From: Leucoraja erinacea
Lineage: Eukaryota
Length of the DNA stretch: 64,000 nucleotides
Direction: 5' to 3'
NCBI RefSeq assembly: GCF_028641065.1
Contig: NC_073390.1
Span: forward strand, 39,866,001 to 39,930,000
The notes beneath the pieces are model-generated. The model was given only the letters and a program-made list of their open reading frames with translations, made no database searches and was not told the DNA's origin. Positions 13,464-16,400 of this stretch are shown piece after piece (within the stretch, counting starts at the first letter, position 1; the number at the start of each line of letters is the position of its first letter). A program made the position numbers and the translations under genes.

Positions 13464-16400
13464 GTGTGTGGCAGAGGAGGGAGAGAGAAGAGGTGGAAGG
13501 GGAGAGGGGCTGAGGGAAAGGGAGATGGAGGAGGTGAGGGGAGAGAGCTGAGGAGAGAAGGAAGGGGAGAGGGGCAGGGAGGGACGAGGTGGGGAGAGAG
13601 GAGTGATGAGGGGGAGGAGGCAGATGAAGCGGGAGAGGGGAGGAAGGTGGTGAGGAGAGATGGAAGGGGGAGAGGAGAGGGGAGAATATTCAAGATTCAA
13701 TTTAATTGTCACACGTACCAATTAAGGTACCGTGAAATTTGAGTTACCATACAGCCATACTAAATAAAAAGCAATAAATACACACAGCACATTAAACAAA
13801 AGGGGGAAGGGAAGGGGAGAGGAGGGAGGAGGAGGGTGGTGAGAGGGGAGGGAGGAAGGTGGTGAGAAGGGAGAGAGAGGTGGGGGAGTGGTGAGAAGAG
13901 GAGGGTGATGAAAGGGGCTGAGGGGGAGGTGGAGGTCGGCTCCACGTGGTGTGGGTGGCAGGTCCCTGGGTAACTTTTATTTTGCACTATGTTAGGGTTT
14001 TTTTTATAGAACCTTTTTGTTTATTATATTATCTATTGAGTGCTGTGTTTACAAACTTGTTAAGCTGTGACAAGTAAGATGTTGATTGTTCCATTTCAGT
14101 ACATGTGACAATGAAACACGCTGGCCTCCCAGGACAACAATCTGCCTGCCAAGTAACCCCCTCCCTCGCCTGTGTTCACCTATTACCCCACACGCTCTGT
14201 CCCCCCCGTCCTCCCCTCTTTCCTCATTTCCCCCACAATCAGACTGACGTAGGGACCCGACCTGAAACATCACCTATCCATGTTTCCTGTAGGTGCTGCC
14301 TGACCCGCTGAGTTACTCCAGCACTCTGTGAAACGTCCCCTATCCATGTTCTCCACAGATGCTGCCTGACCGGCTGAGTTACTCCAGCACTCTTTGAAAC
14401 GTCACCTCTCCTTGTTCCCTAGAGATGCTGCCTGACCCGCTGAGTTACTCCAGCACTCTGTGAAACGTCACCTATCCATGTTCTCCACAGATGCTTCCTG
14501 ACACGCTGAGTTACTCCAGCACTCTGTGAAATGTCACCTATCCATGTTCTCCACAGATGCTGCCTGACCCGCTGAGTTACTCCAGCACTCTGTGAAACGT
14601 CACCTATCCATGCTCTCCACAGATGCTGCCTGACTATGGAGAGAAGACAGGGATGGGATACTGAGTTGGATGATCAGCCATGATCATATCGAATGGCGGT
14701 GCAGGCTCGAAGGGCCGAATGGCCTACTCCTGCACCTATTTTCTATGTTTTTATGATCCGCTGAGTTACTCCAGCACTTTCTGTCTATCTCAAGAAACTT
14801 TGTGTGTTTTCCCACCTTGTACCAGTGGTCTGTAAACTCTCTGCTTTCATGGAGACACAGAGCATGGAAACAGGCCCTTCAGCCCATCGACATCTATGCT
14901 TACCATCAACTACTCATTTCCATTCATACTACATTAATTTTTTTTTAAATAATCCCTGCATTCCCGTCAATTCTTACCAACCACCTACACACTTGGGACA
15001 ATTTACAACAGACAATTAACTCACAAATCCACAAATTAAAGTGCTATTTTGACATTTTTGGTCTGATAATATGATTATTGTTGTCTTTACAGTTTCCCGT
15101 CTACATTGTGAGAGTGAATCCTTCAAAATGGACCTGATACTTGATGTAAACATTCAGATTTACCCTGTTGAACTCGGTAAGACACTAACTGCTATTTTTA
15201 ACTTGGAAAACTAAAAGTCAAGTTAATCATAATTTTAATGGTAACTATGGGGTGACACGGTGGTGCAGTGGTAGAGTTGCTGCCTCACAGCGCCTGAGAC
15301 ATGGGTTCGATCTTGACTACGGGTGCTGTCTATACGGAGTTTGCACGTTCTCCCCGTGATCGCGTCGGTTTTCTCCAAGATCTTCGGTTTCCTCCCACAC
15401 TCTAAAGACGTGCAGGTTTGTAGGTTAATTGACTTGGTATAAATGTAAAATTGTCCCTAGTGTGAGGGGATCGCTGGTCAGTGCGGACTCGGCAGGTTGA
15501 AGGGCCTGTTTCCATGCTGTATCTCTAAATGAAAAAAAATATGAGGCTACACTTGTGTGTGCCATCATTAGTTATACATCACGGAAACAGGCCCTTCAGC
15601 CCAACTTATCCATGTCGCCCAAGATACCCTAGCATCGCCAGTCCCATTCATCCATGTTTGTCCCATAACTCTCTAAAGCTGTCCCATTCATGTACCATCC
15701 AAATCAAAAGCACACTGGATAGCCACCAAGTGGTCACAGGAGTGGAAGGCAACCTCATCTCCATTACACAGCTACATCTCTTCACCAGATAAAAGCTGTC
15801 CAGGGTCTGAACTCCCCAGAGGAGCATGGGTGAAGCTCAACAGACTTGGTACTGGAGTTGGGCGTTTCAATGCCAGTGTGTGGAGATGGGGGCTCCGGCA
15901 GAGCCCAGCCTGTGAATGCGGAGCAGAACAACAGACAGCCAACCATGTCATCTCTGGGTGCCCGCTCTACCACCCACCAAATGGAGCTCAGGGCCTGGCA
16001 GACATTGATACAGAAACAATAACCTGGCTGCTCAACAACCGGCTTGAGATCTAACTATTCCTTTGGTTTCATTCGCAAGAAGACCATCCAAATGTAATTT
16101 TAATGTTGTTATAGTACCTGCCTCAAATACCTCCTCTGGTAGCTCATTCTGTATACCCACCCCTCCTCTGAGTGAAAAAAGTAGTCCCTCAGGTTCGTAT
16201 TAAACCTTGCCCCTCTCACCTTAAACCAACATCCTCTTAGTTTTGATCCCCGTACCCTGGATAAAAGATTCTGTGCATGAACCTTCTCTATTTAACACCT
16301 GTAAGATCACCTCTCAACCCCATTTACACCAAGGAATAAAGTCCTAACCTGCCCAACCTCTTCGTATAGCTCGGGCCCTCCAATCCTGGCAACATCCTCG

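Follow-up and report, generated by a model that had tools for sequence, protein, structure and literature searches.

In one 64,000-nt stretch of the Leucoraja erinacea genome (C14:39,866,001-39,930,000; genome size, 2.19 Gb), which we call the window, single hammerhead-like heads are followed by tandem copies of one 66-bp unit. This raises the question of how such arrays arise and whether the ribozyme has any part in them. An earlier note on this DNA had described five such loci with a common junction, and we found all five by Tandem Repeats Finder and sequence matching. Tandem Repeats Finder placed 66-bp arrays at 11408-11604, 14263-14634, 22782-22979, and 48356-48618. The unit begins at GAAACGTC, and its junction, CTCTGT/GAAAC (the seam), is real; its placement is ambiguous by 1 letter. 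Variants of the seam or of unit length in the window were CTCTTT (once), CTCTAT (twice), and one 64-bp unit.

The focal array lies on the plus strand. At 14150-14243 we found old pLTR sequence of a host stub, which aligns with many differences to the sequence upstream of the 11604 array and to two solo stubs. The head itself (14244-14263) is decayed, with a CUGANGA box that now reads CTGACGT and a remnant of stem II, and it is dead, having lost A9 and the ACGU palindrome. Unit 1 (14264-14329) has an old 5' half, with seven differences and a broken ACGT palindrome, and a 3' half that resembles the common unit. Units 2 to 5 (14330-14593) are each 66 bp long and differ from the common unit at one to five positions. 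The tandem run that the earlier note placed at 14264-14633 is indeed there on the plus strand; its sixth unit, however, is not whole. The 5' part of that unit (14594-14634) is interrupted by a SINE-like piece, of the SINE/LINE 3' type, at 14635 to about 14751 (plus strand; 17 BLAST matches in the window), and the unit then resumes at 14752 and runs with a short pLTR tail to about 14790, the core restarting at 14761. The piece at 14635-14751 may be of the HE1/HER1 kind.

The other four arrays vary in unit number and in the state of the head. A two-unit array at 7672-7815 (plus strand) has a decayed head and a first unit without the cleavage site, and an inverted arm lies 5' of it at about 7590-7669 (minus strand). 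The three-unit array at 11409-11624 (minus strand) has an intact CUGANGA and a broken stem II. At 22763-22979 (plus strand), three units, the first of them 64 bp long, follow a very decayed head, and the 15-bp target site duplication (TSD) reported around this array is exact, with copies at 22720-22734 and 22987-23001 on the plus strand. The four-unit array at 48337-48622 (plus strand) has the sole head in the window with a nominally intact core, and its units have private changes in common. The heads are often decayed, as had been noted: an intact core plus a stem II of at least 3 pairs was found in 1 of 5 (48337 only). Unrelated minisatellites with 40-bp and 28-bp units are present at 24710-24899 and 25747-25907.

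The derivation of the repeat from the minimal hammerhead of a Penelope pLTR held up, since GIY-YIG frames lie 363 to 403 nt upstream of such heads. A head was found at that distance downstream in 6 of 13 GIY-YIG motif matches, all of E type, and Pfam PF01541 was found in 2 of the 3 frames scanned. In the loci sampled, none of the 13 endonuclease matches was followed by a pLTR of A type, the type of the arrays. The unit corresponds to the last 66 bases of the pLTR, at its 3' end, starting at hammerhead G12 and ending at the base of the 3' hairpin. It holds the substrate half of the hammerhead and lacks CUGANGA and stem II. We found about 60 related stubs in the window. The 3' ends of solo stubs fall into two clusters that lie about 35 nt (30 to 40) from each other, and 17 of 179 solo stubs have a TSD (null, 0.3%). 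Two 3' end sites together with TSDs are the tail signature of Penelope elements, according to PMC11167929; tails and inversions are also treated in PMC3846280.

Other Penelope sequences were seen alongside. An endonuclease remnant (Pfam GIY-YIG) lies at 19599-19919 of the window on the minus strand, and its pLTR hammerhead head is at 19490. Stub pairs inverted head to head form long hairpins at 3664-3800, 17045-17187, 35506-35645, and 50792-50948, and Rfam gives several of these pairs weak scores as miRNA precursors. An inverted core was present upstream of the solo stub in 144 of 362 cases. The Rfam scan of the window returned no hammerhead family and 11 weak matches, all under the gathering score.

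The seam is fixed genome-wide. The exact 22-letter seam gave 19,400 genome matches, versus 0 for the reversed control, a count that overstates the number of independent arrays because many matches on C1 belong to one composite repeat. With a free gap of 0 to 30 letters, the seam pattern gave 20,811 matches, and the spacing was 66 bp in 87 of the first 100 listed (counted by hand). Our first census covered 664 kb plus the window and contained 594 units in 55 arrays, of which two of another kind were dropped to leave 53; there, 97 of 114 adjacent unit pairs were spaced by 66 bp. Larger samples comprised 1.264 Mb with 106 arrays and a later set of 141 arrays, in which arrays had 2 to 11 units, 11 being the longest seen. 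The joint that leads 66 letters back was also found in contigs under four other species labels, 20 to 37 contigs each. In the large composite repeat of C1 (L004-L007, L009, L016-L018, and others), a seam fragment lies between LINE pieces, and a decayed three-unit array lies about 1.2 kb off on the opposite strand.

We found that the arrays are chimeric. Of 210 unit bodies that follow a seam, 201 were of type A, the other 9 were unclassified, and none was of another type (1.264 Mb, 106 arrays). The first units of the 66 headed arrays among the 141, in contrast, comprised 41 of type A, 13 of B, 3 of C, 1 of D, 4 of E, and 4 that were ambiguous. At columns shared by the subfamilies, first units differed from the common unit by 5.3% in the 5' half and by 1.1% in the 3' half (p 2e-8); middle units differed by 1.4% and 1.7%. 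Array units are uniform, of one type, and about 2% diverged. Within A-type arrays, the heads were 12.6% off their majority, but the core of the unit they belong to was 1.9% off. The picture is less clear on the 3' side, where last units diverged by 5.2% in a loose count and by 2.6 to 4.6% when an intact tail was required; among the 73 last units whose tail was intact, 24 had a T- or CT-type tail, and their 3' columns were older (3.6 to 4.6%). Arrays without an A-type head ended in an A-type tail in 11 cases and in a T-type tail in 2. Head type and tail type were independent (p 0.69), and 5' and 3' ages were uncorrelated (rho -0.13, n = 31). We therefore concluded that young units joined old heads, not always through clean insertion into one host.

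The earlier note had suggested a subfamily that propagates as concatemers. Our data do not support movement of head and units as one piece, as the heads belong to several subfamilies, their age far exceeds that of the units, and TSDs are rare. Clean TSDs flanked 1 of 23 arrays versus 17 of 179 solo stubs, the few arrays with exact TSDs being the 22720 case and one 13-bp case, and no TSD hugged a headless array among the 141. Two head-to-head array pairs were found among the same 141. Segmental duplication was also considered and rejected: no pair of these arrays shares both flanks.

We mapped a one-letter variant of the seam, which has 237 genome matches. Among the first 100 matches listed, 8 adjacent-unit repeats were collapsed and 1 match on C30 was dropped, which left 91 loci on C1 to C29. 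Of these listed loci, 77 of 91 are no farther than 7 Mb from a contig end, versus 22.5% expected, and the distal ones are usually at one end per contig. Contig ends were assumed to be chromosome ends. For a matched control variant of solo stubs (307 matches; the first 100 listed, on C1 to C9), 19 of 100 lie that close to a contig end, versus 12.8% expected. On C1 to C9 alone, 17 of 29 array loci are near contig ends versus 19 of 100 controls (p 9e-5; among the matches listed). Unlike the arrays, the parent solo stubs are spread along the chromosome arms. Seams are dense around the window (93 in 464 kb versus 5 in 80 spaced 10-kb samples), and the distal zones are patchy (16 seams, all in 2 of 10 samples). 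Interstitial patches of arrays were seen at C2:25-29 Mb, C2:118 Mb, C3:10.7-11.9 Mb, C12:43.5 Mb, and C14:40-42 Mb, the last of which contains the window. These patches are candidates for former chromosome ends or inversions.

A further marker came from within the arrays. In eight arrays on C1, C5, C20, and C24, a unit contains a fold-back cassette of E type, about 170 bp long. They share one joint and a private base, and their heads, flanks, and unit numbers differ. Cassette loci include L163, L164:5215-5390, L245, L255, and L256 (C1/C5/C24/C20), and the centre appears flipped in some copies. The cassette joint has 1,374 genome matches. On C1 to C10, 54 matches are at the left end of C8 and 9 are on C5; C2, C3, C4, and C6 hold 0 of 70 cassette matches versus 27 of 37 matches of the plain variant (p 2e-17). 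This distribution indicates that array interiors are copied from one locus to another, for the most part inside a single chromosome end, off templates that exceed one unit, and that the heads are left behind. If the cassette arose later, this could contribute to the pattern but would not account for the distal zones of C2, C4, and C6 lacking it.

Point variants speak against local copying, in that they are star-like and sharing between neighbours was not significant (p 0.097); this fits a burst that was fast relative to mutation. Widespread sub-masters were rejected for these variants: the double variant of the 48.4-kb array has 1 genome match. The one-letter seam variant showed no polarity, being present in 16 of 141 first seams versus 19 of 154 later seams. 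Stepwise duplication in place is visible as nested shared variants at L229, L232, and L234; L229 (C2:118.47 Mb) has four units with 4 private changes shared in nested fashion. In 7 of 31 arrays, one variant is present in all middle units.

The explanation that we favor, by a little more than an even chance, is that the array is a 66-bp subtelomeric minisatellite derived from a Penelope pLTR, with a single seam, that spread by homology-guided repair from nearby arrays into older stubs. According to this model, the seam, which joins the base of the 3' hairpin to hammerhead G12, would go back to one ancestral tandem duplication. Solo stubs are abundant in distal domains, which are presumably rich in recombination, and breaks within or next to these stubs would then be repaired off a neighbouring array. 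A template switch in sequence common to all subfamilies would take place during this repair, and therefore the old head would stay and young units would follow. Occasional jumps between chromosome ends may seed new domains, unit number would then shift in place by unequal exchange or slippage, and the hammerhead letters would be passengers. Several observations sit less easily with local repair. Arrays with heads of other types mostly end in an array-type tail, so clean insertion into one host is not the rule, and the star-like point variants also fit one burst from a single source. The few TSD-flanked arrays and the 2 head-to-head pairs among 141 are typical of Penelope insertion, and the unit keeps its 3' hairpin beside the inferred start of reverse transcription. 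Distribution is usually the sole basis for inferring how one minisatellite unit reached thousands of subtelomeric loci. Here, the seam, the typed heads, the age step in the first unit, and the cassette are natural tracers of end-specific copying between loci, and they make local ectopic repair and local retrotransposition directly testable against each other. We found no description of such an array, or of such tracers, in the open-access literature searched.

The earlier note had proposed instead that the head pairs with the ACGU of the next unit, cleaves in cis, and so yields 66-nt pieces or circles for a reverse transcriptase to copy, an account that we consider quite improbable. Its geometry can be drawn, and 85 of 112 non-first units keep ACGTC. 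A unit closed into a circle is predicted to fold as a rod (-10.7 kcal/mol, z -2.4; 13 of 500 shuffles as good), which the 9 B-to-A changes would stabilise more than 98.6% of random placements do. This rod, favored by subfamily-specific bases, may be the best hint of a role for the RNA, yet the predicted pairing is of the unit's own sequence with GAAACGU, which conceals the catalytic letters; likewise, the predicted fold of the focal head conceals the GAAAC stretch. In the three arrays with intact heads, the predicted cis fold lies 11 to 20 kcal/mol above the ensemble, and the predicted probability of stem III is at most 0.002. Stem I has just 2 pairs in 47 of 70 cases. The enzyme half is intact in 3 of 53 arrays versus 57 of 276 solo stubs (p 0.010), or in 3 of 37 when arrays with a full first unit are counted; given that a full first unit is present in just these 37, it is fair to say that array heads are kept no better than those of solo stubs. 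The CpG of ACGT decays much as other CpGs do (8.6% versus 10.1%). A plain 66-nt circle also fails as the only template, since it could not carry the 170-bp cassette that travels with the units. In four long-RNA runs, reads did not pile up at starts or ends at the arrays, although such libraries would lose 66-nt RNAs. The 66-back joint was the dominant go-back joint in these runs (4,723, 3,025, 2,381, and 267 reads); strand ratios disagreed between runs and were left unused. Penelope stub sequence (L043:5708-5806) made up 0.1 to 0.5% of reads in the four runs and came from both strands, which is what read-through of intronic copies would give. Two related routes were rejected: a template jump from the cleaved 5' end predicts a 58-nt unit starting with ACC, and the real units include GAAACGTC; back-splicing would need an acceptor AG, which the seam lacks. 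Decayed heads, hidden GAAACGU, CpG decay in ACGT, and the cis-fold energy together leave cis cleavage unsupported as the purpose of the arrangement. Nearest-neighbour energies omit tertiary contacts and help from protein, and the anole Penelope ribozyme cleaves only with protein, as reported in PMC11167929; cis cleavage is therefore unlikely rather than impossible on the predicted folds, and the arrangement is probably not a new ribozyme architecture. Least probable of all is that each array slipped independently from its own stub, with hairpins fixing the seam. Duplication in place does occur, and the 7 of 31 arrays noted above also speak for slippage; even so, the earlier note was right to set the arrays apart from local slippage: the first units are chimeric, type A units stand behind B, C, D, and E heads, and the units are far younger than the heads.

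The strongest alternative, unlikely but to be taken seriously, is that Penelope reverse transcriptase copies read-through RNA of the arrays at nicks near the transcribing locus and that homology then links the end of the cDNA to an older stub, which would make the arrays a ribozyme-less, locally hopping parasite of Penelope. The two 3' end sites of solo stubs, about 35 nt apart, are as in the anole element, which initiates internally on uncut RNA and is able to nick its own pLTR (PMC11167929). Penelope-like elements (PLEs) also tend to insert into or beside earlier copies, according to PMC6765202. Array RNA is abundant, young array-type 3' ends behind old heads fit a one-ended event, and the star-like variants, few TSDs, and head-to-head pairs fit as well. 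Against this, the same enzyme made the solo stubs, which occur all along the arms, the nearer start site is several bases downstream of the seam, and clean TSDs are no commoner than for solo stubs and absent at headless arrays; the end-specific marker frequencies would also require a local retrotransposition that is undescribed. A narrower version is somewhat more doubtful still: a headless, substrate-only Penelope parasite whose rod-folded array RNA, perhaps cut in trans by intact heads, would be copied in situ by the Penelope reverse transcriptase and grafted onto old stubs. If this were true, a retroelement would be colonising chromosome ends neighbourhood by neighbourhood. We regard it as improbable that arrays loop out small DNA circles (66n bp, the cassette included or not), which then re-enter nearby stubs through homology. 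Such circles fit the fixed seam, the variable unit number, the local spread, and the carried cassette, and they fit the 24 of 73 intact-tail last units with a T- or CT-type tail and older 3' columns. Integration by a single crossover predicts matched head and tail types, however, and these were independent.

Local repair in a minisatellite, the reading we prefer, can be set beside known systems. The head is a minimal type I hammerhead of metazoan PLE pLTRs as given in PMC4209133 and PMC11167929, with CUGANGA, a bulged A, a 4-bp stem II, GAAACGUC, and no loop III; it likewise lies downstream of GIY-YIG frames, and two 3' end sites give the tail. The difference is that neither CUGANGA nor stem II is part of the repeat and that most array heads are dead. 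Animal non-LTR retrozymes are also non-coding tandem units related to PLE pLTRs, and in Xenopus, retrozyme multimers are enriched at chromosome ends or centres (bioRxiv 10.64898/2026.07.22.740005 and PMC7229834). In retrozymes, two or more consecutive units each contain a whole hammerhead and circles are expressed, whereas the array units have the substrate half only; a unit without CUGANGA and stem II therefore falls outside the retrozyme definition given in bioRxiv 10.64898/2026.07.22.740005. Human proterminal minisatellites share telomere-proximal clustering and gains in unit multiples, but they are locus-specific, whereas the skate unit recurs at thousands of loci (PMC7615360). PMC9659126 reviews tandem repeats derived from transposons, along with ectopic repair as one of their sources. 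The skate array is best read as a subtelomeric minisatellite derived from a transposable element: its 66-bp units are part of such an element, it is expanded distally against a dispersed parent, and its unit number changes in place. Its closest likeness is the 52-bp SINE/tRNA-V minisatellite of Xenopus, in which a short 3' piece of a retroelement is tandemly expanded in subtelomeric copies only. In Xenopus, intact elements are everywhere, recombination is proposed as the driver, and residual subtelomeric repeats mark old fusions (PMC10794172). The skate array differs in its Penelope pLTR source, its one seam, its heads of mixed subfamilies on one unit type, and its end-specific copying of a cassette, features that the main text of PMC10794172 does not report and on which its supplements may bear. 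By analogy, the mode of working of the array would be that of the SINE-derived subtelomeric minisatellite of Xenopus.
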